NCBI GenBank assembly: GCA_977020255.1 | Contig: CDROCS010001625.1 | Span: forward strand, 744,001-808,000 | DNA from: Obrimoposthia wandeli | Lineage: Eukaryota | Reading direction: 5' to 3' | DNA length: 64,000 nt | Shown here: positions 3,126 to 64,000 of the stretch, one piece after another | How the letters are laid out: each line of letters starts with the position of its first letter | Numbering within the stretch: position 1 is the first letter of the stretch | Program-made: the position numbers and the translations under genes | The notes under the pieces: generated by a model | Seen by the model: the letters and a program-made list of their open reading frames with translations, nothing else | Told to the model about the DNA's origin: nothing | Database searches by the model: none

Positions 3126-3126
3126 C

Positions 3127-4654: not shown

Positions 4655-4679
4655 ATTTATATTTATAATACTCGTTTTA

Positions 4680-4996: not shown

Positions 4997-5092
4997 TCTT
5001 TTCTGATTTGATTTTCGAGCTACCATTTTCCTTGCACTTAAAACTGATTTAATCAATTTCTTAACTTCAGTATCTGGTTTCTTTGATTGTTT

Positions 5093-5525: not shown

Positions 5526-5527
5526 TT

Positions 5528-6434: not shown

Positions 6435-6528
6435 AATAATGAAGTAGAAATAAAAAGTAATCTGTTTATATACTATACAATTAAAATATGATTGGCTGCT
6501 GATTAAAAAAGATACTGACTCATAAAAT

Positions 6529-6939
6529 TTACATATGATAACGATTAAATATACGTATTTGATTAAGCATAGCTTCATTAAGAGCAACAATAATACTTTC
6601 AGCTTTAATAAGATTGGAAGCCCCAGTAACACCCATTGAAGGAGAAAAAATGCAATAACTATGCAAGCAGCATGTAAATTACCATAATAACCACACACTA
6701 AAATCTTACCACCATTTTGATAGTTTCATTAATTATATTATTAGTCTGTGTATAATATTTCATTATTTTCTCCTTATTTTGAGTTTACAAAAACATAAGT
6801 ATATTTTAATTTTGATAAAATATTTTATCCACTTAAGATATATTGATTACATAAGTGAATTTGATTTCAAAGGTTTAGCTTCATCAAAAGCATCTCGATA
6901 ATTACCAATATATAATTGATTTACTAAAATCTCTCTCAT
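6529..6939 (-). pseudogene. Dual-specificity protein phosphatase (DSP/VH1-like) pseudogene
   Basis: Reconstruction over 3 frameshifts and 3 stops: MREILVNQLYIGNYRDAFDEAKPL/EIKFTYVINIS*...KYYTQTNNIINET/QNGGKILVCGYYGNLHAACIVIAFFLLQ/MGVTGASNLIKAESIIVALNEAMLNQIRIF; colinear with the DSP pattern LYLGN..A...ITHVIN...GGKVLVHCxxGxSRSA..VIAYLM...NxGFxxQL. Confidence 0.8.
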
Positions 6940-8007
6940 TTTTGTTTAATTTTTCTACATTAAGTTGACTAAATCTAGCACTTAACCAACAATGAAAAAG
7001 ATGGGTCATGTGGTTCATTTCCATACGGGAAGCATGAGCTATTATGGGTTCCATGAAAGCCAAAGCATTTAAAAAACAACCCATTATTCTAGATTTTCCT
7101 AAATTATATTAAAACTTAAATGTAAAATAAATGATCAGATTTGAAAATTATAATATAATCTTCACACTTTAGTCGGTACTGGTGCGGCTTCAAAATGTAA
7201 AATGGTAAGTGTTGAATGTCGCTTACAACAAATCCCCTATAACTAATATTCACCAATTTGATATTGTGAAGTAATATTTCTGATTATTTTTATAATAATA
7301 TTAATAATGAATTGAAACTAAAATATTTCTCTATATACTCTTCCCAGATTAATTAATTTTATTGATGCAGTAAAACAAATTTTTTTCATTTAACTATGGA
7401 TAGTATAATAACATTTTGAATTAAATAAAATGAATATGATATATAATAACCTAGATAAATTGCCCTAATTAAATTTATATTATACATTATTTTAATTAAT
7501 TGACTTTTGTTTCAATAATCTAATTATGAAATTGATGTATTTAAACAAAAAGTCTTTATGATGAATAGTTCTTTTGTTACACACTTATTGGAAAAAATCT
7601 TTAACTAAATTTAGGAATATATATTATACTTATTTTTATAAGTAATTATTTTTGAAGAAAATAATTTTTGGAAAAAATATAAAAAGGTTTTCATCTACAA
7701 TTATTTTGGTAAAAATGATGTACAAGTGATTTAACATTTTTTTAATTATGGCACCAAATTTATTTTAAACATTCAACAAAATTTAATATATTTTTTTTAA
7801 ACTTTTAGGAAAAAATAAGGTTTTTTACCACTGAAGGTCCACATTCGAAGGTCCATTCAAGGTTTATCTATATCATCAAAAAGTATAAATTTTTAAATTG
7901 TTTGAAGGTTTTTGATCCTCGAAAGTTCAAACTCTTAAGTATCTTTTAGTAAAGACTGCATGTTAATAGGATGTCCTTTCAAAGTACTTGTCTAATATAG
8001 TAGATTT

Positions 8008-8196
8008 CGAATGTCAACGAATGTCAGCGAATACGTACGAATGTCGTTTGATGGATAATGACTCATCGATGAGTCATCATCCGTAACCGATGACATCATC
8101 GTCCTTTGAAATGAGTCACACTATAAGAGGAACAAAGACACCTATCCGTCGAACAGCTACTCTCTGCGTTGAACGTCTACTCTCGGGGTGGGGGGT
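8008..8196. other. Candidate Maverick terminal region
   Basis: 10-bp CGAATGTCAA-type repeat x4 (8008-8047), palindrome 8058-8077, CTACTCTC twice (8157, 8177) and a G-run; the same octamer occurs at 63038-63045. Confidence 0.45.
8058..8128. promoter_or_regulatory. Cluster of three AP-1 consensus sites and a TATA-like motif
   Basis: TGACTCA 8059-8065, TGAGTCA 8070-8076, TGAGTCA 8112-8118, TATAAGA 8122-8128. Confidence 0.4.
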
Positions 8197-17434: not shown

Positions 17435-18269
17435 CAGGAATACCCCGCAATAATCGGGAACCATAACATATGGAATATACAGTTTTTGTGACTCGTTTTC
17501 GAAAATAATTTGAATTGAGAAGGAAATAAATTAAAACAAAACATTAATTTGAAATTATTATTTCTTAGAGTCGCCTGTGCTTGAAAGAAGGTTATGTAAT
17601 CTTTATTTTTTTAAAAATTAGCAAACTTGTTTGCTTCGAATTTTTATTCTTATCGTCATTTATTACTTTATAACAGCTAATTGCACGGTCTATTTCACGA
17701 CATGCCTTCATTGCACGATCAACCACCTAGAACTGACAGTAAATGTTTCTTTAGTCTCTTCTGCATTTTGATTTTCCTTTGCATGTTTTTTTTCAGAGTT
17801 TCAAAGAGACTTCAAACTTTAGTTTTTATAGTCGTTTGACTCAAAGAAATTTTCTTTTGATTACAATCTTCAATCCATATGGATAACAAACGTTCCATAT
17901 CAATCATAAGAATGCTCCTGTTTCTTGTCGTTTGGAAACCAGAAGTAGTTGAAGCACTTTGTCCTTGTTCCTTATATTGTTTCGAGTGTTTTATAATATA
18001 TCTATCTTATCTTTCGTTGCACCAGCATCATGTTTATAATTATGATAAATTTTCGTCTAAAGCAATAATCTTCCGTCTTTTTTATTGGCTTCAACAGCAT
18101 CTGGAGCATTTCTCTTAAAAGTCCTTTTCTAAAATGGGATTTCTAGAAATTTAATAAAGTTAAACAAAATATTTTCAAATTTTTAAATATTCAAATGCTT
18201 AAAAAATATTTCTTTTTACTAATTATAAACCGCAATAAATCGAAAAACGCAATAATCGGGGTATTCCTG
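17435..18269 (-). mobile_element. Internally deleted Tigger element with intact TIRs
   Basis: TA|CAGGAATACCCCG ... CGGGGTATTCCTG|TA (13-bp perfect TIR, TA TSD); interior encodes KRRKIIALDE and MERLLSIWIEDCNQKKISLS...IKTK (HTH CENP-B-like). Confidence 0.92.
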
Positions 18270-18444
18270 TACTCTTATTTAAAATTATTTAAAATTATCA
18301 AAAATAAATTAATTTTCATTATATATTAAGTTTAGAAACTTTTCATAAAATTACTTTGACACCTTCTTTAGAATTATTTGGTGAACATCATTGTTATTTT
18401 TGATTTCCATTATTTTTGTTGTATTTCTAATCAATATTTTTCAG

Positions 18445-21400
18445 TTCAAGCAGATCAAAGCAGGTATGATTCACTACGAGGTAAGTTCAGATTCTTGTAT
18501 TATTTGAATTAATGATAACCGATTGCAGAAACTCGTCAGTATATAAACAAAATATGAATTTTAAAATATTTCTTATGAACTACTTCTATTAAATGCCATA
18601 AATTTATGTGTAATTTCTAAATATCTTGCTTAATTACACAATATGTTACACAAAAAAGAGTAAATGAATTATTTTTTTTAAAAGAATGGGAGAAAATGTA
18701 AAATTTTGTAAATCATAAATGGTGTCATTTTCAACTCTGAGTAATGGTGACATAATTTTTTAGATTCAACATAATTTATTTAATTATAATAGAACATGAT
18801 AAATTTACGAATGAGAATATTTTGATTTTATATTGTAAATCAATCGCCAGACATATTAGCTGGCTCCATCCGAAGTTTCCCGCCGGATAGCTGGTATTTG
18901 GGGCGTATTTGTATATAGTAAAGCGAATGATTAGGAGCTCTGGAATGTAACGCCCTCAACTTATTCTCGAACTTTAAAGGGTAAGTTTCGTATTTTTCTT
19001 CGTTGAAGTTGCACGATTTAATACGAATGCCTGGTGTGCCATTTTTGGTAAGCATAACTAATAGTTGATAGTTTCACACCTATAAGTCACTAAATTGACC
19101 AATCATTCATAGTTTGCTATTCGTTTTTCTATTATACTCAACTGGATCGTTCAAAAAATGAGTAAATAATCGTTTTACATCTGTTTGTTTTCTGGGCAAT
19201 AAGCCATCCAGTCTATCCAGCCTCAAAATAAGCCACATATTAATTTTTCATTTTCACTCAAATTTCGTTTATATTTTTTGAATATTCTTAAAGAACATTT
19301 ATATATAAGATATATAATGATAAAGTAATTAAAATGATTTAAAAACAAAATTTGGATAATAGTTAATGACATTATAACACAAAATAAATTGTCTATCAAT
19401 TTCGTCAAATTATTGGTTATAAATCATATACTTATATATAACGTTAGTAAATCCAAAAAAAAATATTTTATTTGAATTGAAATCAATTTCTTAATTGTAT
19501 TATAGGATATTGTCAAATAATAGGGGTCATACTATTGCAATAGTATGGCCTTTAAAAAATATGGTCATACTATTTGGATTGTCATTATTTGAACCTTTCA
19601 AATAATTTTAAAAAAATTATTCACAAAATATTTTATTGCTAAACAATAAATTGAGATTACTGTTAAAATAGTAAAAGTATAAATAAACATTTATTCATCT
19701 TCTATATCAATGACAAATTATAACATGCCTTCTACCTCGAATGTCCACTGTCTGAGTTCTATTATCTTCAAAATATGCTGCCGTTTCTGAAAGCGAGCTT
19801 TGTAAATAACACATATATGAAACTATACGACTAATCAATTCTTCATCAGATAAGGTAGTAAAGTAGTTATTATTAAACGGGATTTTACGCTAAAACATAT
19901 TTTATCTGCTTTTTGCTTTTTTTTTTTACAAAAAATGGCTTACAAAGTTTATTTAAAAATTATTTACGCTATGATATGATTATAGTACATAAATAATATA
20001 TTTTCTAATATATTTCTAAATTTTAATATATACAGAGTTGCAGAGTTTATCTTATCTTAAGGTTGATGTCTCTTGCGGTCGATTTCTTAGTTTCATCCGC
20101 AAAATCAATTTTGTGCAAAGTCACAAATCACCGTGTTTAGTTTGCCACTTCCTCCGGAATCAGTTATAACTCGTTTGGGAACATGGTTAACAGCCATTAA
20201 ATATCACTGGGAACTTATTCGGCGATAGAAAAGTTTGCATGCCATCTCAACATTAATTCTGCTTCTATAAATAAAGCCACGAAAGCTTTTCCAGTGAAAA
20301 TCTACCCATAGAGTTAATTTATATAGATTTTTTTATTATTGTCATACAATGTAACATATCAAAGCCTTAGAAATAGATATGGCACCATTTGTTGATTAAA
20401 TTGACATTGTCAATGTACCTTAAATTTGCATGTATAAGGCGCACCCTTTTACATATTTTTATAAATAAATCAGGGGCTGCGACTTATACACCACTGCGCC
20501 TTATACGTGTATCTATTGTACGTTGAAACATATTTCTAGTCATTTGACCTTGAGAAGGGGGTTATAAATATAATATAATAGTTGACTTCCCTCCTCTGAT
20601 TTTTGCTTCATATGTTTAGTATACTATACTTAACTTATTCAGTTCATTTCTTAGATGTAGAATTTCTATTTTTGATCGTCGGCAAAATTTTATCAAGAAA
20701 ATCATGAAATAATATGGCAATACATGAAATACTTAATAATAGCATGATTTCAATATAGATCAATAAATATCATATCTAATTTTATAAATATAAAAATCTG
20801 TTTTTTGGGCTTCAAATGGTAAATGGAAAAAGACGTTCTTATCAAGCGAGCTTTAAGCTCCAAGTTATTGAATTTTCTAAAATGAATGGCAATACACCTG
20901 CTGCAGCTGAGTATAACATTAATGAATCGATGGTCAGAAAATGGAGGAAGCAGGAGAATGCATTAGCACAAGCCACTAAAACTCGAATGAGCTTCAGAGG
21001 TTCTAATGCGCGCTGGCCTCAGCTTGAAAATGTGGTTGAGCAATGAGTAATATTGCTGAGATGTGCCAGTAGGGGTATTTCCACAGTTGATATTTAATTA
21101 AAGGCACAGTCGGTTGCTGAAGAGATGAATCTTGAAGGGTTTATTGGGGATTCATCTTGGTGCTTTAGATTCATGCAACGAAGAAACTTATCTATTCGTA
21201 GCAGAACAACTACATCCCAACAATTAACTAGATTACATTAAAAAAATTTCGTGCTTTCAAGAATACTGTAATGTTAGAATATTTGAAAAAAGCATATTAC
21301 ACTCGAGGATTACCAACATGGACGAGGTTCCATTAAGCTTTGACATCCCAATGGGGAGAACTGTTGAAAGAACAGGAGCCAATACAGTAGCAATTAAGAC

Positions 21401-24400
21401 CACTGGAAATGAAAAATCTTGCTTTACAGTAGTACTTGCATGTCATGCGAATGGTGACAAACTCCCCACTGGTAATATTCAAACGTAAAACTATGCCCAG
21501 AGAATCATTCCCGACTAGAGTTATTGTTAAAGTTAATTCTAAAGGTTGGATGAATGAGGATATCATGGCTGAGTGGCTAAGTGAAGTATATATTGGAAGG
21601 AATGATGGGTTTTTCCATAGAAATACTTCTTTACTTATTTATGATTCAATGAGAGCACATATTAGTGATATTAATGGATTTGAAGCTGAAAGTGATAAAT
21701 AAATGAATAGTTGAGATTCTTTGGTTGAATTTATTCAAGCACATTTTTAAACAGATAATGCGCCTTATACGCCACTCGCCTTATACGTGTATTTCATATC
21801 GAAAATTCCGATTTTTTCGAGATGCGCCTTATACACTGGTGCCTTGTACATGCGAATTTACGGTAAGTGTGTAAAATTTCTGCTTTCATCAAAACGGATG
21901 AATCAATGAATGAAACATTGAAAAACAATTATTTTTACAAATGAATAAACATTTATGAAAATTTTAGAATTTCTTATTTCAAATGACCACTTGCGAAATA
22001 TTGTTTTTTGGAAAAAATATTTAGTATGTATATCATAAAATTAGGAAAAGCATTAAAATGTACATTCAATATTAAGAGCATATTTTTATGATTTTTTGAG
22101 CATATTAATCTGTTATCTAGTAATTGACAGTATCATCTATTGTCACAGATAAGGAGTTGGCGGTTCTGGATTCAGCTCCAGTTTCCTTCCAAACTGACAA
22201 GCTGGACACATTGGATTTTGAAGATCTTGAGAAGAACCTTATCAAACTGAGGACAGTCTTTAGGTTAGATCCTACCTCCGAGGGTTTTTCAGAAAGTATA
22301 CGGATTTTACTTATGTGATTTTTCTAAAAAACTGATTAAAGTAAAAGTTTGAACACGTGATCATTGATAATTGATTAAAATATTGGCAAAGTTTTAAAGA
22401 GTAGAAAGCCATTAACAGTCATTGCTCAATAGTTTTCTTTCTTCCCAAGAAAGGCCATGCCACCGCTGAACAAACCTTTCGACTTGAAGCTATATTGGGA
22501 GAGTAGTCAATGCAAAGAAACACTGTTAGGATTGGGTGAGTCGACCAACTTTATGATTTGAAACAGATGTAGAGGAAGTCAAGTCTATGCTGGAATATGA
22601 ATGCAGGGTGACAATTCGGGATATACGTTAGGAAATATGCCTTGGTGTTGCAACAGTTCACAAACCTTTGTACGAAGAGCTCGACACGAACAAGTTAATA
22701 GTACACATACACAGTCAAACAGGAACCAAACAGTTTTAGTCTTGAAATTGCTGTTGAACAGGGTAGTGAGAGAAATTGACTTGTTTTGTCGGTGCTTGAT
22801 AACTATGGACGAAATTTGGCTGCCTTATTAGAGTTTTGGGATGCATATGGCATAATTCTCAACGACTATCTCTAAAAGGCACAACAACAAATTCAATCTA
22901 CTACTGTGAGCTTTTAAGACTTGACTTAAGCAGAAGTTTGCCGAACAAGATACGCTGAAAACCTTTCCCCTTCCCAATATTACCGCTTGGCAATGCTACA
23001 CTCACACATGAAAAATGGCCTCCGAACAGTTAGCATATTTGGGTTGGGATATCTAGCCTCATCCAGCTTACTCCTTCGATTAGCACCGTTGAGTTTCACA
23101 TTTCTTTCATTTAAAAAAATCATCAGAGAGAAATACATTTCACCAATCTTGAAACAATGCAACATACAAGGATGGGGAAAATGAGTGATCTGGATAAGAT
23201 TTCATTGAAACATTTACTCTTGTAAATGAGTGATCTGGATAAGATTTCATTGAAACATTTACACTTGTATATATATTGGCTTAAAAGTTCAGTTTATTTA
23301 AATAATTTGTTTTAGAAATTAAGTTTTTATTAAAACTTGGATACCTCCCGAACCACCCCGTGTTAGAATTCCTTCTAAGACAAAAAATAAATTAATGAAA
23401 ATGAAATAATTTTATGTTTATCTTGTCTCTTATATTTACTATGTTTGTATACAGGGATAGACTGAATGGCTATTTTAACCATGTTCGTATCCTGGAAAGT
23501 GAGAACATAAAACTACAAGCGGAAACTGATAAGTAAGTAACCATTTTAGACTAGCTTACATATTAAATTAAATAATTTGTTATCGCACAATTTCAATAGT
23601 TTACATCAGCGGTTTCCAAACATTTTGAAAGGAACCCCAGTAAAAAAATGATAATTTTCGCAACCCTCTTAAAAAAACTAGTAACACAATTATATTTAAT
23701 TATTCAAAAGCTTTTTTGAATTAAAAAAATTTCTAACGTAAAAAAAAGCTTCAAAAAATTATTGAACATTTAGTACCACGGGGAAATTATATAAAAATCT
23801 ACATGTTCTGTTCTTTTTTAAGGCAAACTTTTTAAAAATTTCTAACTTAAAAATAGCTTCGTAAAATTATTGAAGATTACTCTTTCATGGTAATGTTCAA
23901 TAATTTTATTTGAAGTATTGAAATATTATTTTAACGTGACTCTTTGGAAAATCAGTCGCCTCTTTTGGGGTCGCGCCCCACACATTGAAAACCGATGGTT
24001 TACATAAATATTTCTTAATGAGTCCTTTAGCAGATACATAAGTTGGCGTAAATTATATGTGAATTTATTTCTCAAAACTTTCGATAAAATATTCTACAAG
24101 CAATCTTACGTTTTTTGTATGAAAATTTTATTTTTCAACTACAAAATATATTTTGTTTGTAATGAGTATAATCTATATTGGCTTCTATAATAGTCCCCTT
24201 TAAGTTCTCCAACATAGAAATTATTCGTCTATATTGGAAGATTCAAATGATTTTATTCTAAATTTCTCGATTTTAAATAACTGAAATAAAAAAAAACCAT
24301 TTAGTTTGTTTAGAATTTTGAAAAATATTTTATCAGCAATTCAATTATCTTATCAGTGTTTCTCTTTCAAAAGAACATAGATATTGTTGACTATTCTAAA

Positions 24401-27400
24401 ATGAATTTATGTAAGTTTTATGTGTATTTTACAAGGGAAGCACTAATAACTTTTATATAATTGAGGAATAAATTTAATTTGAAACATAATGTATAATGTA
24501 TTAAGTTAGAAATTATTAATCGAAAGATTTGCATATTTTAAATAATTTTAGATATATACATTAATATATCTGTAGCTTCCTTAAATATATGAATAAAGTA
24601 AGTAAATTTATTTTCTCAAATTTAAAAGTAATTGCATTTTAAAATCTTCTCAAAAGTAAAATGTTAAGTTATTTTTAGCTACTATAATACATGGATTTGC
24701 CATTGTTTCATTCTAGTTTAAAACTATTATACTTATGTAGATGTCATTTGGGTATTCTTCGTTGTTAGTCAAACCTTTTGCATCCATAGATGACAAAAAT
24801 ATTGGTGAATTTCATTAATGATTTCATTAGCATTCTTCGGAGGTATAATAATTAAATCTGTAAAATTTTATTCAAAATAAAAGTTATCATCACAGAGTTT
24901 TAGTTTTTCTTTTATTTTACTTTCTATTTGGAGAAAAACTTTCATTTCTTTTACTTGCATATATTCTTGTATTTTTCTTATCTTACTCAAGAAGTTGTCT
25001 TCATTTAGTGAGTGTATATATCGTATTTTAGATTTCTCTAGTGCGGTTATATGTTTAGTTTGACACTGAGTTCAGACTGTTTCATTCAATCTTGACATGT
25101 CATCGATATTACCAATACCTTTACGATGTTCTAACTTAAAATTAAATTTCGATAAATTTGCCACCCATGTTTGAAATTGGGGATTGAATTGTTTTTCGTC
25201 GTTCTTAAAGACACTAAAGCTTTATGATCTGTTCTTCCTAAAAATTCTGATCTATATAAACATTGTTTGAAATGCATAACAAATTGGTATACTGCTAAAA
25301 GTATTTTTCTGGTAACACAATAGCGTTTTTCATAAGAAGTCAAATATCTTGAATCGTATGCAATCACTTTTTTGTTTCTTATTTCATCCAGTTTGCTCAA
25401 TACTGCCCAATCGCATCAAACCTTGCGTCTGTATCAATTATAAATTTTCTATTTGGCCTAATAAAGTCTAATATGAGATCTGTTGTTAATTTTTCTTTCA
25501 GGGTTTAAAAGTTGTTTTACAATCCGGTGACCATTGTATTGAATTCTTTACTCCGGAACCCGCCACATATGAAGCTTCGATTTTGGAATAATTTTTAATA
25601 GATCTTAGTTTTCTGTTACAATCATTCCTTTAAATTTATAATTTCGTTGACTTTTGACTGATTTGTATGTATTCCGCTTGCTGTTATGGTATGCCAGGAA
25701 TTTTTATTGTATCTGACCGATGCTGCATTTATTACGGTTTATTCTGAGCTGCAATTCTTTTGAATACTTCCCTTAATAATTCATAATGTTCTTGGTTGTT
25801 ACTATAAACATATTTGAACAGCAAACCATCTAATATTTTATGCACCAGACTGGAATGTTGCCGGTACTATAGCCAACCTAAATGACAACCCTAACCCAGT
25901 TTTGTAATGAAATCGTTTTTGCCTGAGACTCATTTTTTAGATCCACCTGGTAATAAGCTTGTGTAATATTTTTGCATCACCTAGACAATCGAACAAGAGT
26001 TGTGCATCCGGCATGGAAAATGTAAACTTGGTTACAGCATCCAATTGTCTATAGTCAACACACATTCTAATTGTATGGTCTGGCTACTTCACATTGACCA
26101 ATAGTGAGTTCCAAGGACTCTCACAACTATTAATTATGTTTGATTTGAGTTAATTTTCAATCATTTCATCAACTTGATTTACTAAATACATTGGTTGTAG
26201 TCTAGGATTTTGACATTGATTTTCGACAATCTCAATTTTATGGGAGATAATTTTGGTATATCCTTAATCGAATTTAGAACACATAAATATTTTTCCGAAC
26301 TCTTCAATATAATGTCCTAGAATTGAGTCTCAATCGCATTTTAAAGAATTACATATTTTATCTGTTCTTTCTTTTGAAGAAAACGTTTTCATCATGCAAG
26401 ACGAGTCCAAATTACGAACTTCTTGTAGCTTTATCTCGAATGTTTTCATTGTATCGATTCCACCAATAAAATCTGGTTTAATTTTATCTACAACGATTAT
26501 TACGAAAGCTTTCTTCTTTCTATTCCACATTGTGTTAGTATTAAACCTACATAAAAGTTGTTGATGGATACTCAAAAAACTCCACTCAGATATAAATGAC
26601 TCTTATTTTGTGACATCCTACTTTCTTCCATCAATCCTTACTCATTACAGTAACTGATGCTACGGAGTTCCACAACATTTCAACATCTACATCATTAATC
26701 TTCATTATACTCTATTCACGACCACCATTCTTCATATATAAATATTTTTTCATTCCGCTTTGGTTCTATATGCTCGATCCCACCGACGAAATGTGAGCAA
26801 TGGGATCGCTCACGTTTCCCTAATTAACATCATGTATTATCAAGTCGTCATTATTACAATTTTCTAAATCTTCATTATTTTCTCTCACTTCTTCTGTTAT
26901 ACAATGTACTCTTGAAGTTTTATATATATATTTTTAAAAGATATCAGCTGTTAAAATTGTGGGTTTTTTTTCCTCAAATCAAACATTTGTTATTGAGAGG
27001 ACATTTCGGAAATGACCTTTTTCATCACAACAAAAGCATGCTCCTGGCTGAAGTTCTTCCCATTTTGTGACAGTCCCTTGGCTAAGTTATATTTTCTTTT
27101 AGCTATTTGTTTTAAGGAAAACCTTGGCATTGGTCTCCTATTATTTTGATTTTGGGCGTTTCTATTTATGTATCTTTTTTCTTCATTAGCAACTTTCTTT
27201 GTTCCTTGTGTACTGGTAGTGATACTAGGTGTTTCTTTGTATTGTTTCAGAAATTAAGGTTGTCAGGACGGTTGTATTCTTTTTTACTGTATTTGCATGG
27301 ATTCTGAAATTGTGCAATCACGGTTTTCTTTTTCTCAATATTGCTATAAACCTTTGCCGACGCCTCTATTTCTTCTTTTGGCATATGAGGTTTTAATAAG

Positions 27401-30400: not shown

Positions 30401-33400
30401 TTTAAATCTATATCAAATACATTTTATAAATCCATTTCTAATTTTAACTCGGTCACATTTAAGTAATTTTTAATCACTTATTTACTTATTTACTCACTTA
30501 CCAAGAATTTTCAAATGCCTCGTACATCGTGTTCCGTAATATCAAAAGTACAAAAATATGCGAAGGACCATCCTAAAGAATTTGTTGTAACACCAAAAGG
30601 AGATTTTTTTGTCAATTTTGTAACCAAATCATAGGGTATGATCGTCGTTTATCTGTCTTAAAACATCTTTCAACATCGAAGCATGTGAAAGAACTTCAAA
30701 ATTGCAGTGGCACATCTAGGCAAACATTCATGCCTCCTAGTTCGACAATGCGATTTCAATGAGAGACTAATACGAGCATGGTTTGCAGCTGATATCCCAT
30801 TACATAAGTTGCACAACAATGAGCTACGAGAGCTTTTCTTATCTTTGGGACAACCACTTCCTTCGGTGACTACCTGTCGAACGTCTGTACTTTCTCTAGC
30901 AGAAGAGGAAACATTGCGAGTACAATCTTTAATATCTGAAGCTCCTTTTTTCCCGTAGTTGATGAAAGTGACCTTAACGGTAACAAATATTTAAATATAC
31001 TCATTGGCCGTCTTGACACACCATAAAAAAACATATTTATTGAAGTGTACACCGTTAAATGAAAATTGCAACCAATTTACAATTATTCACGCTGTTGATG
31101 ATGTTGTAAAGCAAATAAAATCGAATAGATTTAACTTTTTTCTTTTATTAACCGACACTGCTTGTTATATGACAGCAGCTGGTTTGGCACTTAAGCACAT
31201 TTATCAGAGGTTATTCCATGTAACGTACATTGCTCATTTGCTTCACAACTGTGCTGAAAAGGTCCGAACATTTTTTTCAAGGGTTAATGAACTTATTGCC
31301 AGAGTTCAAGCGGTCACTAGAAAATGCAAGCGTCGACGAGAAGAGTTTTCTTCCATAGGTTATCCTCCACTTGCTGGGCATCCTGGCTACAAGCTTCATT
31401 TTATTATTACAATAATTTACCATTTGTTAGGGAAGTTGTAAGCTGCTGGAAAGGTGATGGACTCATAATCATTCATGCGATTTCATCTGTCAATGTAGCG
31501 AACCTTCGCGATCTGCTTCATATTAAAAGATGTTATGAATGCTTGGCAAAATTAGTGGTCAAATGCGAGTCAACTACTTACAGCATTCGGGAAGTTTGTA
31601 CAATTCTTCATCCTTTAAACTTCGATGAAGACCCTTGCAATATTCGGACGTATGTAAATTCTCGGATCTTCAAGAATCGCGGATTCAACGATATAATGAC
31701 GATGAATCGAGGTGAGATTTCACCGCCATGGTACGAGCTTCTACAGTCTTTCAACCAACATCTGCATCGGTGGAACGGAGTTTTTCATTGTTGAGAAAAT
31801 TGTTATCAAATTACCGCAATTTTTTGCCGTCAAATGTGGAAAAATACCTAATTCTTTACATAATAAGAAATATAAATGTTTTGTTGTTCTGAAAGCGATT
31901 AATTCGAAAAAATTGAATTTTGTAAGCATAGTGCTTAAATGAATAAATAATAAAAAAATAAAAATTATAAATGCAACTTTTTCGATTTTTAAGCGCAACT
32001 TTAGATCGCCCTGTCATTACTCTCACATGTATTGAATAACTTAATCTTATGAAATTAGAAAAGTACTATATTTAATTTTTTTTGCCATCCAATTTTTTAT
32101 TTTTAAGGTATAATTTGTTTTGGGCCAGACCAAATCTATCAACGCCATTTCTTTACAATTTATATTAATAAAGAAATTGACACTTAAGTATCCGGATGTG
32201 TTTTTCTAGCATACTTTATGTGGTTTGCTTGGAAAACAAATCACAATTGCACCCCTTGAAAATATCGTTGCAAATGTATATACAGCTCTGCGTCAGAAAT
32301 TAGCAAAACTGAACAAACATTGTACCTTAAATTTTGTGATTATCTTATGATAATAAAATAATACATTTAGAATTTAGTGAGAACGTAATTTTAAAAACCA
32401 TGTAATTAATTTCTATTTTTTATGATTTTAAAATTTCAATTAAATATGATTATTTCTGGAATATTAATTTTATCCATACTATGATATAAAATAAGTTAAA
32501 CAAAATTGTATATAAAGCGTTTAATAAACCATTATAAATGTTTATTTAAAATATCGTGGGATATTCCTAAAATTGAAAAAAGTATAGTTAATAAAGTTCT
32601 CTTTATTTATTTGTCCATAGGTTGGTAATATAGATGAATATAGTGTGATAGAGCTGTATAACATTTACAAAAATATTTAAGCCTAAGATTTACTTTCATA
32701 GTCTAAAAACTACTTTTATTATGCTAGAAAACTACACCCGGATAAATTAGAAATGAATGATGATGATAGTCTATCAGCGATGGCTTTGGTGTAGTGCAGA
32801 ACAACACATTGATTAGAATTTACGTTGGAACACGCATTTTAAGTATATTGTTTTTAAATGATTTTTTAGCTTCATACATTTGGACTTATACATTTTGGAA
32901 TTTTGATGTTTAGTTGATGGAGTAAATGCTAATGTCATTCAGTTCTGATGGGCATGGTATTTGACTAGCTTTGCTCTTGCGCAATCCCTAATTATATTCT
33001 TTACCATGTTTCTTCGGCGGACTCATATTACACCAAAAATCAGCAATTCGAAAGTCAGTTAAGTGTTCGATTTTCAAAACTTCGAAACTTAGATTTCAAA
33101 TTTCCTAAGATCGAAAAGTTTTTTTTCCACTTTTTCATTTCACCGAAGTATTTTTTGATTTTTGTGTAAATAGAATAGAAAAGCAAAATATAGTTTTTAA
33201 ATAAAGTAAATCGAATTATTAAATTAAATTTTTTTCTTCTTTTCTTCTCATTTATTATCATAAAAAAATTTGTTGTTATAAAATAGTTACATTTGATGTT
33301 ATGGAAATTTAAAATTTATCTTTCGAAGTTATGAAAATTGTAAAATTAACCGACTTTGTATGTATAATTTTTGGTGAAATAATGACGTTTTTCTGGACTT

Positions 33401-53940: not shown

Positions 53941-54714
53941 CCTCTTGAGCCTTTTTGAGGCTTTCATTAACAAAATGGAGATTATATTATAAAAAATTAT
54001 GTATTATAGATATATGCGACGTTTGTCATCCTTTGCATTTCAAATTTAATGTAGATATCCGGTTTAGGTCTTTAGATTATAAGAAGAAATTTACTAATTT
54101 ATATCTCACTAAATATTTTCATTTATTAAAATAGAAAGAAGGAAATAGGTATATTTGTGAAATATGTATTTTCGATACAACTAAATCTAATTTTGATATT
54201 GAAAATGATTTTTTTTATGTTTTAGATGAAATAGATGGCAAAATGGATAAGATATTAAAATTTTTTTTTCTAAAATTGAGATTGAATACATTAAATATTT
54301 CACGTGATCATCTATTAAAATTTCCACTCACTTTTTTCCTTTCAATCCTCGATTTTTGAAATAATGAAGAAGAACTTTATTTTTTAATAATATTTATTAT
54401 TTTAGATTACTTGTAACCTGTTTCCAGCGTATTGTGCTGCTTCGGCTCCACATGGAGGAGATTCCTGTATGACGATAATTTCTGCCTACTATTGAGTAAA
54501 GTCTTATGGATAGGTGTATTATATCAGCCAATTATGCTGAACTATGGAAGACAAGGAGTTTGCAGCTTTCTTCAAGGAACATCGGGATCACTTGTCCTGC
54601 TTCACGGCCAACAACAAGAAGAAGACTATCGTCCAATTGGTGCACGATTTGCTTATTTGTCTAGCTCAAGCTCCAGTTCCAGCTTCTGCGGTTACCTATC
54701 ACCCAGTGCAGCAG

Positions 54715-57700
54715 TGCAGTTTAAAAATGTCAATGAGGAAACTAAAACTTGGGTAATTTCACATAAAGCTACTGTTTTTTATGATAATTTTGTAACTGAA
54801 ATTGGAAGAAACCTGGATGAAAAAATTGCTAATTATAGCGAGTTAAGTAGTGGATGGACTCTAGTTAGAATTCACGATGTTAGCTTTGTTCTAACAAAGT
54901 TCTCTGACATGATATATCTTTCGGGGAGTTAATACATTCCTTCACCTAGATCTCTTCAACTTTCACGTTCCATTGTTAACGTACAAAACAGTGATAACCT
55001 TTGCTTTCTGTATAGCGTGTAGGCCATCCTCAAAAGGGATGTAATTACTGAGCATAGAGAGCGTGTCAGTAAATATACCCCTTTTTTAAATGAATTGCAG
55101 TATCATGGAATAGATTTTCCTATTAAATTAACTGCGATATCAAGATTTGAACATCTTAATAACTTGAGTATTAATGTATTAAAATATAATACTGATATCC
55201 CAGTTAATGTAACAGATGAAGAAATTTTAAAAAATCCTTTTGTAGATGTAATTTATAGGAGTAAAAATGAGGGGACTCAGGTCAACTTAATTTTGCTCGA
55301 ACATAATAAAAAATTCCATTATGCTGCAATTCCCAATTTAGATCGTCTTCTAAATTTAGATAATGGAGCCTTACCGGTTAGGATAAGGTGTAAGTGGTGT
55401 CATAGATGTTTGCATGGGTTCCGATCCGAGCTCTCTTACAGCAAACATCTGACATTATGTTCACTGAATCCTGATGACAATACGTTATACACCATACCTA
55501 AGGATAAGGATTTAAAATTCAGGGATTGGGCAAAATGCATACCCGTGGAATTCAGGGTGTATGCAGATTTTGAGTCAATTTTAGCATTGTACGACCAGTA
55601 TGAGAGTATTCACCTACCGGCTTCGGCAGGACTACTATTCTTAGGCCCAATATTACCCAGTATCATAAATTTTCCGGTCCAAATTGTATTTTAGATTTCA
55701 TGTTAAAATTAGAGGAATTAGGAACAACAATTGTCAAACCGTGGTATGATCTCAATGCTCATCAAGCAATGATCATGACAAGCATAGACTGGGTTAATTT
55801 TAATTCTTGTAGATTATGTTATTTGTGTAGAACCCAGTCTAATTTAGTCAGAGATCACGATCATGTTACGGGGCGATACTTGGGAGCGGCGTGCAACCTT
55901 TGTAACCTTGGCCGTCGTCTCCCTAAAAAACCACGCATTCCCATCGTGTTTCATAACCTCAAAGGATATGATTTGCATCATATACTTAAATACGCATTGG
56001 GTACATTAAGCTCTTGGGAAATTTCATGTATACCTCAAACTTCAGAGAAATATTTATCTTTAACTGCATATACTGAATTCTGCAGTTTAAGATTCATAGA
56101 TTCTCTGCAGTTTTTGAGCGGGTCTTTAAAAAATTTAACGGCATCTTTAAATGCATGGCCAATTACACAGTCAGTGTTCCCAGCTTCGGTTAACGATAAC
56201 AGGATTTTTCCGTATAAATTTGCGAAAACCTTTGCAGATTTAGAAAATACTACAGAAATCCCACCACAAAATGGAATTTGAGGGTGTAAGTCTTGAAGAC
56301 TATAATGAGGCCCTTACATTTTGTGCGAATAATTGTCGAAATTTTTTAGAATATATGCTTTATTATATGAAGTTAGACATTTATCTTTTAGCTGATGTTT
56401 TTGAGTCCTTTCGTGTAAAATCTTTAGCAGAAGATGGGCTAGATCCCATGCATTTCATTAGTTTACCTGGTCTTTCATGGGCAACAGCAATAAAAACTCT
56501 TAAAATTAATATCGAGTTACTGCAAGATCCCGCGATGTATCAAATGTATGATTATGGTATACGCGGTGGAATGACTTTTGTCAACAAAGATCATGTTGTC
56601 AAAAATCAATCCACGGAGATTTTGTACATCGATATTAATATTTTGTATGGGTGGGCGCTTACTCAACCTCTACCTCATGCCAACTTTAAGTGGGTTTATG
56701 ATGTGGATCAGTTGAATAAGTTGATGACAGATTTGGCTACTGTTGATACAGTTTCATCCGACGTCGCTATTTGGTTGATGTGGACATAAAAATCCCTCCC
56801 AATGTGCATGATAAATTAGACGATCTTCCAGTAGCGCCTGTTCATCAATGCTCACCTAATTCAAAGGTTAAGAAATTATTGTTAACCCATGAAGACAAGT
56901 TGAATTATGTTGTGCATTGGCGGCTTCTTCAATTCTACTTAAAGTTGGGAGTGAAAGTTACTCGAATTCATCGTGCTATAAGCTTCAGTCAAAACTTTGT
57001 GTTTAAAGACTATATTGAGAAGAATTCTAGAAAACGTAATTTGGCCACTAGCAAATTCGATCGAGATTTTTACAAGTTAAAAAGTAATAGTCTCTTTGGA
57101 AAAACTGTAGAGGACTTGCGGAAACGTATTTGTCTACGGTTTTGCAATGATGAGCGTAAACTAATAACATATACTAGCAAGTACAACTTCAAGCGTAGTT
57201 TTACAATTGCAGATGCCTTGGTAGCAGTGTTATTAGGAAAACAGAGTATTTGTCTCGATCGACCGAGTTATATAGGTCAAACAGTTTTAGACATTTCTAA
57301 ACTCAGAATGTATGAGCTTCAATACATAGAATTGGAGAAATACCGACAAGAATTTAATTGTGAGATTAAAATCGCAGCTGGGGACACTGACTCTTTCTTT
57401 TTAGAATGTAGGAATGTTAGTTTAAATAATCAATTATTACCAGCAATGTTTAGGGACAACTTACTAGATACCCATAAATATACCGCTAACCATCCTCAAC
57501 ACTCTATGAGTTTAAAGGACATTATTGGGAAATTTAAGGATGAAAGCGAGGGACAGGTTTCGTATGATGATTGTATTTTCCTACGCCCTAAATGCTACAG
57601 TTTACATGCATCTAATAATACATGTTCAATGAGAGCAAAGGGTGTGGGAAGAAACAATCTTACACATGAGGCATACCGAAAAAATAATGATACTGGGTGT

Positions 57701-57735
57701 ATTGAAAGCGTTGAGCAAACTAGATTTATACATGT
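54715..57735 (+). pseudogene. Near-complete protein-primed family B DNA polymerase (pPolB lineage 1) of a Polinton/adintovirus, frameshifted
   Basis: YSELSSGW, YADFES (Exo I), RDHDHVTGRYLGAACNLCNL zinc insert, FHNLKGYD (Exo II), LDIYLLADVFESFR (Exo III), GIRGG, YIDINILY (A), KLKSNSLFGKT (B), GDTDS (C), GKFKDE, RAKGV; extreme C-terminus lost. Confidence 0.96.
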
Positions 57736-60700
57736 TATTATCGTGATGATTTGTATGCAGTCCTTTTAGAGTTGCTTGAGGAGAAAATAACCCATCTCGC
57801 TTCTAAAACTTTCTTAATATTCCGTCATACATCACAATATCAGATTAATTCCTCAACTTTTTTTAGGGTATATTTTCTCTTCTGAAATCTCCTAAATACT
57901 TCGTAATATCTTCTTCTACTTTGCATTGCTTCATGAAATGCTACATTATAAATATCAATGATGATTCAAGGCTGGCTGATGAATTGAATGTAGATAAGAT
58001 GCTTGAATATTGACTTTGGAAGTAGTCTTTGGATATTAGTTAAATCTATATAATTTCGGTATAACTTTCTTTGAGATCTTGGGTTAAGACTATTTATGAT
58101 CACGAAGCATCTTCCCGAGATTTCTCTGTTATGTTTGAAGTTATTGATTGAATCAGATGATCCATGAATTTGAAACGATGGATGAAATTGATAAGTAATG
58201 GATAGATATGTCTCTGTAACTATTTGATTCATTCTCACTAATACTCTTAGAAATTTTCAATATTTTTCCTTTTGAAACATATATAAATAGTAATTAATCA
58301 TTTATATTCTTGAATATTGCATACGTTTTAATTACTATCTCTTCTCATATATAACAATCCGGGTATAATTTCTTCATATATCACAAGTCCAACTTTTAGA
58401 ACATAATTATAAATTTTCCTATAATTCTAAATAACTTTCCTTCCCATAAACCTCTATTATCAACCCTAATTTTTTTTAATATCAAACAAGAAGTTGATTA
58501 TATATGTCAAACAAACCAGGTATAATTCATAATTTCCTCACATATATCAATTCTTTAACACTATTCTTCATTATTGCATCTAAATTTCAATAAAATACTT
58601 CAAACATTATCTTTAAAAAATAGCATACCTAGCTTTGATTTTAATTGAAGGAATGTAGAAGAAATAGATAAAATGCTTAAATATTGGTTTTGGAACGATA
58701 ATATTGATGACTTCGATAAAACTCTCTTTGAAAATAACTTATTTACTATGTATTAATGAAATCGTTAATTTTCATTCAATGTCTTAATATTAATTGATTA
58801 AAAGTATTTTTAATGTCTAATGAAGATAGAATCCATTTATATGAACCAAAACTATTAATAGTAATTATAAAGATTTCACCCGATTTTTTATAAAAATATG
58901 ATGACTTTATCAATACTCAGAAGTTGTTTCTTTAAGTTTTCCTTAATACCTATTGACTTATAAGTAGCTATTTACAACATCATTGATTATTTTCAACTAT
59001 AAAATCAATAATTGGGAATATGCACACTAATCGTTTTTACTCAATATCTAACGTAAACCTCTAACTTCTAATACTCTAATTCTAATATTCTAATTCTAAC
59101 ACTAACATCATTTTCCAAAATATATGCGAAAAATTTACAAGAAGATGGTAAAAGTTTGAATAATATCTCTGCTTTTGTAAAATTGTCTTCGTTATGACCG
59201 AAATATGAGTAAAATACTTATGATTAATTTTTGGTATAACTCGCTTTGAAGCTGTATAAAGCTGAAATTCAATATGATCGCTTATATCATAATCTTAAAT
59301 GAAATGACCGGAATTTTGATAAAATACGATTTCACTACAGTTTTAGAACAGTAGTCTTATTTCCCTTCTAAACCACCTAAATATCTTCTAACTCACATTA
59401 AATTTCCTTTCAAAGTAAAATATATCCTATATTTTTTCTTTTGAATCCTACTAACCTTATATACATCGCTTTTATTTTCATTCAATCTAGCTATCTAGGC
59501 TATATTTACCAAAACCTCCTAAACATCCCTGCTAAATCTTTTCTAAACCCTTCAAAGCTTTAATCTGAACCATCTAAACATCATCGTTAAATTTCCCTCT
59601 AAATTCATCTAATTTCTTATTCTGAAACCTCTTGAACTTCCTGTTAAATCTCTCTCTAAATTCCTTTAATTTCTTCTGAAACCTCCCCATATAAATTCTC
59701 CTCTGAACCAATTTAAGTTATATTTCCTCTTCTGAAACCTCTTGAAATATCCGTTAAATCCTCCTTTTATCTCCTTTAAGGATATATTTTCTCTTCTGAA
59801 CTCCTCGGTTAAATTCTCTTTGGAACCCTTTAATTTCCCATATGAACCAATTTTAATTTCTTTTTTCTGAAACTTCCTAAATACTCCTTTTAAATACTTC
59901 TCTAAACGCCTTTTAAGGCTATATTTTCTGATACCTCCTAAACATTCCTGCTAAATCTTTTTTAAACCCTTCAAATATATAATATATCTTCTGAAACCTC
60001 TTGAACACTTTTTCAATTTGTCTTTTATAACCATTCTATGCATTAATATTTCTTCTATAACCTTCTAAATACCTCGTAAATTTCCTCTTCTATGTAATAA
60101 ACTTCCTAAATTCCATTCCTAAATCTCTTAAATAAATCCCATCAATTTCACTTCATAATCCAATCTAGGCTATATTTTTGATACCTCCTAAAAGTATCGT
60201 TAATTTATCCTCTGAACCGCTACTTATCTTTCTATGTATTAATTACTCTTCTAGAGAACCTTTTGAACAAATCGTGAGTTTCTCTTCTAAAACTCTATCC
60301 ATTATTTTCTATTCTTAAACCTTATAAACACCCATGTCATATCTCATTTAAATGTAACAAATCTCATGCATCTTCTTAATTTCTCTTATAGAACCTTTTA
60401 TGTATAATTTCTTTACTAAACCGATTTATTTGAAGTAATAAATCAACTGGTTGTTGATGTTTGAAAATAAGTTTCCATAATATTGATAACATCAATAAGC
60501 TTGTAGAGTTTTGCAAGAATTTTCTCGTTTGATATATCGATCAATGAAAAATTATGTTTTTAGAATATAGTTATCAATAGACTCAAGTAATATGAATAAA
60601 TTATGACTGAGATAAATACATACTCTAAACATTATTGAATAAATTATATCAATAAATGATACTTGAAAATAATTTTAGGTTTAAATGAATCGAAAGAGAG

Positions 60701-61585
60701 AATATAATTTAATCCATTTCTAGTCCTGATGTAATAATTTCTAAACAAAATGTTCCAATATAGTATTGATAATTTAATTAATTATTTATTACATAGATTA
60801 ATTTCCTTAAATAAGCTAATCTTCAAACAATATTCTTTGAAACTAATCATTTTTTAGTAACAAAACTTTTACAGATTCTTTTACAAAAAAACTTTTTAAA
60901 AGAAAGTAGAGAACATTTTAGATTTAATGAATCATTTTGAAAATTTAATAAAATTCTTAGTTAAAGATGCAGATTAGTAATATACTCTTGATTGTAAATT
61001 GACTAATTGATCAAAGTAATCTCTCTAATTATCCGTATAATTGTCCGTAATAAACTCTCACTTATTGATCATTATATACTCTCTTCAAATTATATATTTA
61101 TTACACGGAGAAATCCTTTAAATATGTTGAAGAGAAATCCAATTAGTGCATCTACCATATAAGAAACCATGAAAACTTTATTGACGCGCTAGCACATAAG
61201 AATCGTCAGTAAATACAACTTATTTGTTCTGAAAGTAATTTTGTCCTTAAACTAAAATCAAAGAAAATTTATATAAATATGGGTAAATTCATTGAAAAAT
61301 GATCAATTATTTGCATTATAATTTGCATTATTCTAAAAATCCTTGGTAAATGTATCTTCTAATCTATAAATTGACTGAAAATCGAACTTTCTAATTCGAA
61401 ATTTACATTATTCAGAAAAATTACACAGTAAATTCATTTGTCAACTAAAATCCTTATAAATGATATAAGATTCAACTTTGCATCTTAATTTACATTATTC
61501 TGAAATATACACGATATAAAGTATTCTAAATCCATAAATATAAACATAAAATGATTAAAAATTGAACTTTTTATATCCAAATTAG
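57736..61585. other. Unassigned 3.85-kb decayed block between two PolB paralogs
   Basis: No recognisable TIR, LTR or enzyme motif; contains the degenerate repeat at about 59490-60295. Confidence 0.6.
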
Positions 61586-62056
61586 AATTTTTTTCTAAAG
61601 TGTCATAATATAGACGTGCAAGCTACACTGTTGTCTGCAATGATTTCAGATGGATTATTAGTCACATCAAAATTTTCTATAAACCATCCTTTAGCCAATA
61701 CTGCGATAGGCAAGTTTAAGGATGAGAGTAAGCAATGTAGATATAAGCAATGTGTATTTTTACGCTCCAAATCATATAGCTTAGAAACTATAGACGGAAA
61801 GTTCCAGATGAGAGCAAAGGGAATTAGTGTTAAGCAGACTGTGCTACGCCATGCGAATTATTTAGCTGCATATGATAGTGGGGTTAGTGAACGAGTGCGA
61901 CAACAACGCATTAGTTCAATTAATAACCAGATCTATACCGTAAATATGAGTAAGATCGCATTGAGTAGCAATGACGATGAGAGAAAATGGGTAGAGAAAA
62001 ACCGGTCAGTTGTCTACGGACATCATAGATATCCAGATGATTTTTCACTTGAATAA
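61586..62056 (+). pseudogene. C-terminal fragment of a second pPolB (lineage 2) with natural end
   Basis: FFLKCH...LLVTSKFSINHPL...IGKFKDE...LRSKSYS...RAKGI...RISSINNQIYTV...IALSSNDDERKW...YGH; open to the stop at 62056; AATAAA follows near 62110. Confidence 0.92.
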
Positions 62057-62610
62057 TTGTTTGAATTTGTATGTCACAAATTTATTGTACCTAATTTTCT
62101 CTTAGGTTTAATAAATATTTGTATCCAATTCGTCTTTTTTCTAAGTTTAAAATTTTAAAGTATAAAAGTTCTGTGTAAAATTTTAATTCTAAAGTATAAA
62201 AGTTCTGTCAAATTATTTTTTTAATGTATAAAAATTGTTGTAAAAAAATTATGTTGGAAATTTTATTTTTAAACTATAAAAATTTTGTAAACAATTTTAT
62301 TTTAATTTAAATTTTTTTTTGTTTAAAAGCCATTTTGAAAATTTTAAATTTGGCGCAAAAAAAATTGCGTCTTATTCAAATAATTTATTTTTTGTAATGT
62401 TTTTCGTGCCTAAAGATCAAGAATGAAGCCCGCCCCAAAGGGGTGGGCGGTGTGCGGTGTATGTTAGGGTCTTGGGTATGACACAGGTTGTCTACATGTA
62501 TAGTTGTGAGAGGTAAAGTGATACTGTAGCGCATGTTTTTGTAGTTATTTTCGCGAGAATGGAGCCCGCTCCGAAGGGGCAAGCGGTGGGTGAAGTGTTT
62601 CGATGGTGTT

Positions 62611-62700
62611 GTGGTGTGGTGTGGTGTGGTGTGGTGTGGTGTGGTGTGGTGTGGTGTGGTGTGGTGTGGTGTGGTGTGGCGTGGCGTGGTGTGGTGTGGT
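62611..62700 (+). repeat. (GTGGT)18 microsatellite
   Basis: 90 bp, with two GTGGC variant units. Confidence 0.98.
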
Positions 62701-62705
62701 TAGGT

Positions 62706-62886
62706 GTGAGAGCGAGACATCCGTACATCGCAGGGCTAGTCCGTGACCTATATGAGAGCGAGATATCCGTACATCGCAGGGCTAGCCTGTGACCTATATG
62801 ATAGCGAGATATCCGTACATTGCAGGGCTAGTCTGTGACCTATATGAGAGCGAGATATCCGTACATTGCAGGGCTAGTCTGTGACC
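62706..62886 (+). repeat. 46-bp tandem repeat, about 3.9 copies
   Basis: AGCGAGA recurs at 62711, 62757, 62803, 62849; unit GAGAGCGAGATATCCGTACATYGCAGGGCTAGTCTGTGACCTATAT. Confidence 0.98.
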
Positions 62887-62927
62887 AATGTCAGTCCCGA
62901 GCCCTTCGTGCGACCAATGTTACCCCT

Positions 62928-63001
62928 CTTGTCCTTTAAAACCGTGCATGTGTGTGGAGTGAAATTTCACTCCACACACATGCACGGTTTTAAAGGACAA
63001 G
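62928..63001. repeat. Perfect 74-bp spacerless palindrome
   Basis: CTTGTCCTTTAAAACCGTGCATGTGTGTGGAGTGAAA|TTTCACTCCACACACATGCACGGTTTTAAAGGACAAG, all 37 pairs checked. Confidence 0.99.
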
Positions 63002-63045
63002 GGGGGAGGGGGTGTGGATTAGACCGGACACATCCACCTACTCTC

Positions 63046-63535
63046 GTTTAGTGAATCTGTTTTTTTATCTTGGAAGTAATTATCGGATACTTAATATGGT
63101 TATCCATAATTCCCGAAACCACATATTTTCCTTTATCAGATTTATTTGGAAATCCATACTGTTCTGCAATAATCTCATCATTAAAAACTTCTTCAAAATT
63201 ATCCCCTTGCTCCGCAATTTGAATTTGATTTTCTTTATTTAAAAGGTTGTGAAATCATCCCCTGCTTTAATACGCTTCAAATCTAATCATCTCATATCAA
63301 ATAGTAAAGTCATATTAGTTACTTTATCAGCTTCTTTTTGAGTTATATATTCAATCTCAGTTTCACTTTGAATTGATAGAGGAGAGAAATTGAAAGAAAA
63401 TTCCGTTAGTGCAGCTTCCCAAGCACCCGGTAAATTGATTGAGCTTTGATAATCAATACTAAAATTATTTGCAGTATTATCCGGCTGAGTTAATGGTGAA
63501 CCATCACTGGGTAATACAACATACATTGAACTCAT
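63046..63535 (-). pseudogene. Penton-like minor capsid gene, second copy, 5' part
   Basis: Near-identical to 3127-3562; about 50 bp longer, ending against CTACTCTC at 63038-63045. Confidence 0.75.
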
Positions 63536-64000
63536 TCTGTTTGAGAAGCTAATATCCAACTAGGTTCAGTATATCCGTGCCACTTAACTCGATATTATTT
63601 ATGCTTTCCTCTCCCTTTTGTTTCTAAGATTTCATGAATTCTATATACATTTTGTTTTCAGTTAATACTTGTAATTCTGCATGATAAAATTTACCGGTGA
63701 TTTCATTATTGGTTTCATCCTCAATGAAATACATTACTGGTACATGTTTTTTTATCGATTTTAATTATACAAAATACTTCATCACTCCAATTCTCTTTGA
63801 AATTCTTTATAAAAGGAGTAGTACTAATTTGAGAAATACGTACATAATAACCAATTTTATACTTCGGTTTCTTTACAACTTGACTTTGATTAGCATTCCA
63901 TAGCATTCTCATTTGTAACATAAACCGGTCTCTTTCCTTCTTATGATGAGTGTTCACTATGATTGTATGCATGTATTATTTGAGATAAAACCGTGATCCA
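63532..64000 (-). pseudogene. Polinton integrase, second copy (3' part, runs off window)
   Basis: Near-identical to 3559-4028, including a shared premature stop. Confidence 0.92.

Follow-up and report, generated by a model that had tools for sequence, protein, structure and literature searches.

The ends of Mavericks, adenoviruses and phi29-type genomes are primed by a terminal protein and replicated with displacement of strands, and in Mavericks an rve integrase joins the ends to host DNA. A summary of the protein-priming model is also given in 10.64898/2026.07.28.741278. Paired terminal inverted repeats and a 6-bp target-site duplication are further marks of Maverick/Polinton elements. To our knowledge, Maverick replication is known from models only. 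Snap-back derivatives are a familiar product of protein-primed systems: they include the palindromic mini-DNAs of phi29, the hairpin derivatives of Kluyveromyces pGKL1 and the symmetrical minichromosomes of adenovirus. In the rolling-hairpin termini of parvoviruses and AAV, the concatemer junctions of poxviruses and the target sites of protelomerases, a palindrome is itself the end or the junction.

Maverick end motifs include 5'-(AGT)2 or (AG)3, the former being the motif of vertebrate Mavericks, according to PMC8097293. Palindromes (52 nt in subtype 5) are found in the terminal inverted repeats of endogenous virophages/PLVs of Halocafeteria seosinensis, and for these both hairpin priming and accidental annealing have been proposed (10.64898/2026.07.28.741278). 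For animal pPolB Mavericks, we found no published case of ends that contain a long palindrome, Repbase and most subscription papers lying outside the coverage of our search. The words “palindrome” and “hairpin” are absent from the main texts of PMC8097293, PMC8502044, 10.1101/2023.08.22.554363, 10.1101/2024.01.15.575659 and 10.1101/2024.03.18.585575, and the available parts of PMC3014272 and PMC6431247 contain nothing on palindromes in Maverick ends.

Here we describe a long perfect palindrome set back in an otherwise ordinary Maverick-type end, in a 64,000-nucleotide stretch of DNA from Obrimoposthia wandeli (hereafter, the window). In our preferred reading, to which we assign a probability of about 0.6, the palindrome occupies a subterminal position in the right terminal repeat of a pPolB Maverick/Polinton whose end integrated in the capsid-like gene of another Maverick. 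The locus shares with Maverick/Polinton elements and animal adintoviruses a pPolB, an open 5'-AG end with a short repeat, a repeat-rich non-coding end and mostly decayed copies (PMC8097293, PMC8502044). The rve integrase, A32-like ATPase and capsid-like genes that would complete the likeness lie in the recipient copy. The locus differs from those elements in having a perfect palindrome of 74 bp set 41 bp in from the end and an apparently large surplus of ends over interiors, and the sixth base of its end motif departs from (AGT)2.

Structure of the Palindrome

The palindrome is perfect and spacerless over 62928-63001, with arms of 37+37 bp (62928-62964 and 62965-63001), and past one mismatched pair it is extended by 4 further pairs to a total of 84 bp (Table 1). 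The runner-up among perfect spacerless arms in the 64-kb window measures 10 bp, and when the window was simulated 100 times under a first-order Markov model, the longest spacerless arm reached 12 bp (mean 8.8). The region 62890-63060 has a predicted folding energy of -57.1 kcal/mol (z = -11.8), which was equalled by none of 200 shuffles. An Rfam search gave no matches, and exact-pattern scans of viral contigs with the palindrome core gave none either. The unique stretch of sequence on the inner side of the palindrome (inner flank, Table 1) has no resemblance to the terminal segment outside it.

Table 1. Positions of the palindrome, the element end and the neighbouring features within the window
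Feature	Position	Strand	Remarks
Junction in duplicate copy	3125-3127	.	1421 bp, equivalent to 61678-63098, lost; one extra base
pPolB C-terminal 156 codons	61586-62056	+	5' part missing; natural protein end reached
AATAAA hexamer	62110-62115	+	Past pPolB stop; candidate polyadenylation signal
AT-rich 32-bp tandem repeat, 3 copies	62147-62245	.	
Two related GC-rich 45-bp boxes	62421-62465, ~62557-62599	.	First box: small 9-bp hairpin
(GTGGT)n microsatellite, ~20 units	62606-62708	.	
46-bp tandem repeat, 3.9 copies	62707-62886	.	94% matches
Inner flank	62887-62922	.	Unique 36 bp between 46-bp array and left arm
Palindrome	62923-63006	.	Axis 62964/62965; 8-bp self-complementary core 62961-62968
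Unique terminal segment	63007-63042	-	Small 6-bp stem 63015-63038; element end 63042
Recipient: broken, truncated gene of second Maverick copy	63043-63559	-	Capsid-like
rve integrase gene, 3' region, recipient copy	63560-64000	-	Core at 3969-4571 in duplicate

An earlier note, made from the sequence alone, had described loopless 37-bp arms extending to 84 bp with one mismatched pair; our coordinates agree with this description. The note had also called the palindrome unmutated amid decayed neighbours, which is unremarkable. The window contains two duplicate copies of this region (see below), which differ by 46 mismatches in 4022 aligned columns; this divergence predicts about 0.5 changes in 74 bp, with a probability of about 0.6 of observing none (0.03 at the divergence of the recipient). 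The insertion predates the split of the duplicates. The perfection of the arms is little surprising, and no conversion or repair between the arms is necessary to explain their match. Of the neighbours, the pPolB piece that adjoins the palindrome is an open frame of 156 codons; the decayed one, the capsid-like gene, is part of the older recipient.

Genes and Repeats around the Palindrome

The product of this pPolB piece is 33-35% identical to three full-length pPolB proteins, aligning with their last ~150 residues and extending to the motif at their C-terminus, and 33% identical to the pPolB of a complete Maverick-like contig (L017). With this piece the polymerase that marks Maverick/Polinton elements is present, and the window also has a second, longer pPolB. 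The latter, at 54417-57769, belongs to another family and is nearly full-length and frameshifted; in addition to a PF03175 match (~54750-57760) it has an endonuclease VII-like (HNH-type) domain (PF02945) in which the Cys/His/Asn motif is kept, as it is in all four relatives aligned. HNH insertions in pPolB are described in 10.1101/2023.08.22.554363. Between the stop codon of the pPolB piece and the element end lie 986 bp of non-coding repeats. Among these, the 46-bp unit is multi-copy in the sample behind three of the public runs used below, and similar units occur in a marine metagenome from a separate study.

Beyond the element end lies the recipient, a second Maverick copy. Its interrupted gene is 35% identical over 57 amino acids to the 255-amino acid gene that follows the integrase in L017; it matches no Pfam family, nor does its L017 counterpart, and in a protein search with the capsid-like piece none of 33 candidates was homologous. 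From its position and a motif, we call it capsid-like, a putative minor capsid gene. Also belonging to the recipient copy are the rve integrase (PF00665 at 3972-4571, E-value 4E-13) and an A32-like ATPase, whose match (E-value 0.008) is below the Pfam cut-off and which is 44% identical to the ATPase of L017; both can be seen in the duplicate of this region at 1-4028 and the sequence directly after it. The order ATPase, integrase, capsid-like gene is the same as in L017. Similar depth and layout lead us to infer that the integrase-bearing recipient is of the same family as the palindrome-bearing end.

The reference contig itself (L017:1-12321) is Maverick/adintovirus-like and complete at 12.3 kb, with terminal repeats of 277 bp, and it encodes pPolB, ATPase, integrase with a chromodomain, capsid-like genes and an adenain-type protease. 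An N-terminal pPolB piece on the plus strand of the window (5553-6306) is oriented away from the recipient's ATPase gene and thus points opposite to the polymerase in L017.

Several further remnants were observed in the window. The minus strand of 57770-61560 and 1-3030 is a heavily decayed, AT-rich coding region with short frames that have no Pfam support; by eye we take it to be LINE-like, from endonuclease and reverse-transcriptase-like motifs. Decayed pieces of host transposons are also present: Tc5/pogo-type DNA-binding and DDE_1 domains occupy 17815-21699, an LTR-type RNase H piece lies at 25134-25415 and a DUF659 piece at 30995-31438. There is also a possible end of a second Maverick family at 7980-8190, ~1 kb past Maverick gene remnants (3051-7108): its minus strand begins AGAGAG, an (AG)3 motif, at 8165. 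A perfect 20-bp palindrome (8058-8077) lies ~90 bp inside 8165, and its fold is unexceptional (z = -1.35).

An Open Element End Outside the Palindrome

Five public runs cover part of the stretch, and we compared 62845-64000 with the contigs of four of them. Three of these (X2-X4) are runs of one sample, possibly the source of the assembly; the fourth (X1) is the marine metagenome mentioned above and contributed 4 records, on the 46-bp unit and the gene region; that none of them covers the palindrome carries no weight.

The contigs break sharply at 63042. Directly behind this position there are loose ends in 285 contigs of X4, 149 of X2 and 42 of X3, and across the bin boundary at 63040 the summed depth drops from 7.0M to 0.45M (X4), from 812k to 68k (X2) and from 357k to 33k (X3). 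The sequences past 63042 in the contigs are AT-rich and unrelated to each other (agreement 0.40-0.42), and these unrelated continuations indicate that the break is the end of a mobile element with many insertion sites. Read on the minus strand from 63042, the element begins 5'-AGTAG, matching 5 of the 6 letters of (AGT)2, so that a Maverick end motif is found at the very boundary that the contigs define. AGTAG does not occur between 62056 and 62923. The boundary is an open 5'-AGTAG end of the Maverick/Polinton type, 78 bp outside the axis of the palindrome, 36 bp past the extended arm and 41 bp past the perfect arm. The order is pPolB end, repeats, palindrome, 36-bp tail and end, and end and arm are both present in high copy number. 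The flank to the right is 63043-63048, and a left end of the element is absent from the 64-kb window. In other contigs the same end is joined to 63663 and to 63754, in the integrase region, which hints that it often lies inside Maverick copies, by nested insertion or by deletion beside the end.

The proximity to a Maverick-like end that the earlier note proposed is thus borne out, with the end now placed by contig breaks, and there is support for the palindrome being part of the terminal region of a Maverick-type element that carries pPolB. The functional suggestions of that note fared differently. Neither a hairpin-type terminus nor a rolling-hairpin origin is supported: the element boundary is an open 5'-AGTAG end with heterogeneous flanks, 78 bp beyond the axis. 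The palindromes of parvoviruses and AAV, poxviruses and protelomerase sites resemble this one in being perfect or nearly so, in lying near a genome end and in being capable of forming a hairpin or cruciform; there the palindrome is the terminus or junction, whereas here the boundary at 63042, with a unique tail and of the integrase type, is outside it. Among the 138 ORFs of at least 60 amino acids in the window, which holds an incomplete element, we found no HUH/Rep, protelomerase, poxvirus-type resolvase or A22-type gene. Flip/flop isomers, another mark of such replicons, would be masked by a perfect palindrome. The note's last suggestion was that the lineage may combine pPolB with hairpin priming or resolution, or that the palindrome records a fold-back event. 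A fold-back by template switching is plausible, but priming is not, because with 36 unpaired bases beyond the stem the 3' end is unable to prime on it. Nor is the palindrome needed for priming, since ends of this kind are primed by the terminal protein.

One might still suppose that the palindrome functions as a hairpin origin or as a resolution site, with hairpin-ended or concatemeric forms being cut at the cruciform, perhaps by the endonuclease VII-like domain that this class of pPolB carries. The stem is very stable, the other pPolB of the window has the PF02945 match with its motif conserved in the relatives, and the Halocafeteria preprint (10.64898/2026.07.28.741278) proposes hairpin priming for virophages/PLVs whose palindromes adjoin the target duplication. 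We consider this improbable: the end lies far past the axis, has a motif of the protein-priming type and leaves an unpaired tail; the palindromes in the preprint flank the repeats and are mostly in non-pPolB elements; L017 has the nuclease domain but no palindrome; and the middle of the palindrome-bearing element's own pPolB is not in the window.

Two other kinds of element end were compared with the locus. A complete fold-back MITE would have a mirror copy of the end at 62887, where none is found. The 3' end of a Helitron or Helentron has a short stem-loop a few bases before CTRR, with insertion at A|T or TT; here the end reads CTACT, the local flank starts with C and no Rep/helicase family was found among the ORFs.

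Palindrome and End across Copies of the Family

Read support is indirect: thousands of records cover the arms and the terminus, all of them assembled contigs and not raw reads. As expected of arm records, many fit two places (8432 of 26,929, 6958 of 26,070 and 4593 of 17,725 records, or 26%-31%), indicating a very large number of arm variants. TG indels placed symmetrically in the two arms (62948/62949 and 62973) were rejected as compensatory changes: a contig can fit either arm. The 40 listed majority differences (of 373) are all in the recipient gene region, 63073-63942, and none is in 62845-63042; from their confinement to this region the recipient is identified as the decayed copy, with at least 4.6% majority differences among the rows listed.

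No loose end at the joint of inner flank and arm is found among the 20 listed (of 1237). In many copies the inner flank and the end appear, on this indirect evidence, to be joined to oppositely oriented arms, and a flank and an end on opposite arms require a turn in arm orientation. No piece among the 28 listed (of 71,136) spans the axis itself. Many contigs leave at the 8-bp core (at 62961 and 62968; 217+104 contigs in X4, 138 in X2, 58 in X3) and continue with another copy of a 25-bp unit, 62944-62968, as a direct repeat, and the listed go-back joints have a period of 25-26 bp. With a direct 25-bp repeat at the axis in many copies, the axis region evidently varies within the family; tandem 25-bp units and a palindromic turn can coexist in one family. 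A second type of flank begins at 62930/62999 (150 and 151 contigs in X4, 25 in X3), where the outer edge of the arm is replaced by a short insert and a C-run, then a G-run. This variant may be a subfamily of the end or an outer-end variant, or it may belong to a different interior.

Could the perfect form be a rarity of this copy, the family norm having extra 25-bp units or a spacer that collapsed here by slippage or recombination between two cores, or in a one-off fold-back? The hundreds of contigs that depart exactly at the core, the go-back joints and the unbridged axis would fit such a history. We regard it as quite unlikely, in that a copy with this inner flank and this end needs a turn in arm direction at some point, and no other joint is seen among the listed loose ends. 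Very improbable is a fold-back artefact of the assembly or library. No raw read that we saw covers the axis, and the runs may come from the assembly's own sample; but the two flanks differ, each being unique after 42 bp, multi-copy contigs lead from both of them into the arms, and many sequence variants of the arms occur.

The depth profile distinguishes the inner and outer parts of the element end. The inner-flank bin (62884-62922) has summed depths of 0.63M, 56k and 13k, and in depth this flank and the 46-bp unit resemble the Maverick gene region. The ratio of the terminal bin to the inner-flank bin is 11, 14 and 28 in summed depth, which is not equivalent to copy number. A rough lower bound of ~900-2800 termini follows from summed depths, again not copy numbers. 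These values hint that end and arm are in surplus over the inner flank.

A rival reading assigns the end and palindrome to a separate, non-autonomous cut-and-paste element of foldback, Mutator-like or MITE type, which would have inserted behind the pPolB piece and of which the other end is gone. Foldback elements typically have tandem units inside long inverted ends, which would suit this reading. The depth of end and arm is far above that of both the inner flank and the gene region, and the flank consensus in the contigs, which is AT-rich, begins TATAT or AATAT; a Mutator-like family that targets TA microsatellites does exist (PMC4486113). Nevertheless, such an origin seems unlikely to us. 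The end motif matches the Maverick class, the flank at the window locus begins CTCGTT rather than TA, TTAA or AT, no second end was found between pPolB and the palindrome, and the depths of the inner flank and the 46-bp array are like those of Maverick genes.

The Duplicate Copy and Relatives in Other Contigs

The near-identical duplicates, 1-4028 and 58556-64000, are ~58.5-60 kb apart and 98.5% and 99.3% identical; they represent either a segmental duplication or two haplotypes that the assembly placed one after the other. The copy at 1-4028 has lost the equivalent of 61678-63098, the palindrome included. The 1421-bp difference is a loss because pPolB homology runs over the left breakpoint, and for the same reason we rejected the opposite interpretation, an insertion in the second copy.

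We also surveyed 33 relative loci (L003-L035, 351,529 bp). Palindromes with arms of at least 14 bp occur in six of the 33, the longest arm being 17 bp. The survey is a weak one, in that most of these contigs have no ends and several distant matches are probably not Mavericks; the marginal L002 was excluded. The sole surveyed locus with both terminal repeats, L017, has no palindrome with arms of at least 14 bp there. Among the other candidates, L001 (a 21-bp match only), L036-L038 (no BLASTN match to the window) and, by eye, the short matches L039-L041 were judged to be chance.

Discussion

How might a palindrome have come to lie inside a Maverick end? We propose that a template switch at the 8-bp core, made in the course of strand-displacement synthesis, would have given rise to it, and that it would then have been copied with the family. 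In full elements it would be at most an accessory dyad, either a protein-binding site or a hairpin in the displaced strand. A new strand begun at the end could, once past the axis, fold back there and recopy the arm and the end. The product would be a short, symmetric, gene-less derivative with two complete ends, movable by the enzymes of the family. Derivatives of this kind would account for the greater depth of end and arm relative to the inner flank; being symmetric, they would fit end and arm perfectly and add no loose ends on the inner side. The depth excess is consistent with abundant non-autonomous, possibly snap-back, derivatives.

It is tempting to go further, though the odds are against the complete proposal and we offer it tentatively: a built-in fold-back point 78 bp from the end may give rise to symmetric mini-elements of ~156 bp, longer with an amplified 25-bp unit, with two complete ends each. 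These would be fossils of copy-back defective-interfering genomes and would be more than ten times as numerous as full elements. The cruciform might be cut by the endonuclease VII-like domain found in this class of pPolB.

The snap-back forms of phi29, pGKL1 and adenovirus offer the same logic, in that a strand initiated at a protein-primed terminus turns back on itself and copies that terminus a second time, yielding a small symmetric replicon. Those forms are extrachromosomal, whereas the products here, whose existence we infer from depth only, would be integrated by rve and amplified in the genome. With the Halocafeteria elements, the locus has in common that palindromes lie within the terminal repeats of integrating, Polinton-related elements. 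In that protist, the palindromes adjoin the target duplication and are associated preferentially with non-pPolB replication genes (10.64898/2026.07.28.741278), whereas here the palindrome lies behind a 36-bp tail, by a pPolB end, in a genome that is of animal type to judge from its Maverick, LINE and DNA-transposon content.

A fold-back site in the end of a high-copy family would be a sequence handle on the single-stranded intermediate of Mavericks. The prediction is that symmetric mini-elements occur which have two ends and a 6-bp duplication. Should they exist, they would show that Mavericks proceed through single strands released by displacement and give rise to defective-interfering satellites, a route to MITE-like repeats that does not involve a cut-and-paste transposase. 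For the host genome, thousands of cruciform-prone ends could be fragile sites; in the duplicate copy, it is the palindrome-holding 1.4 kb that has been lost.
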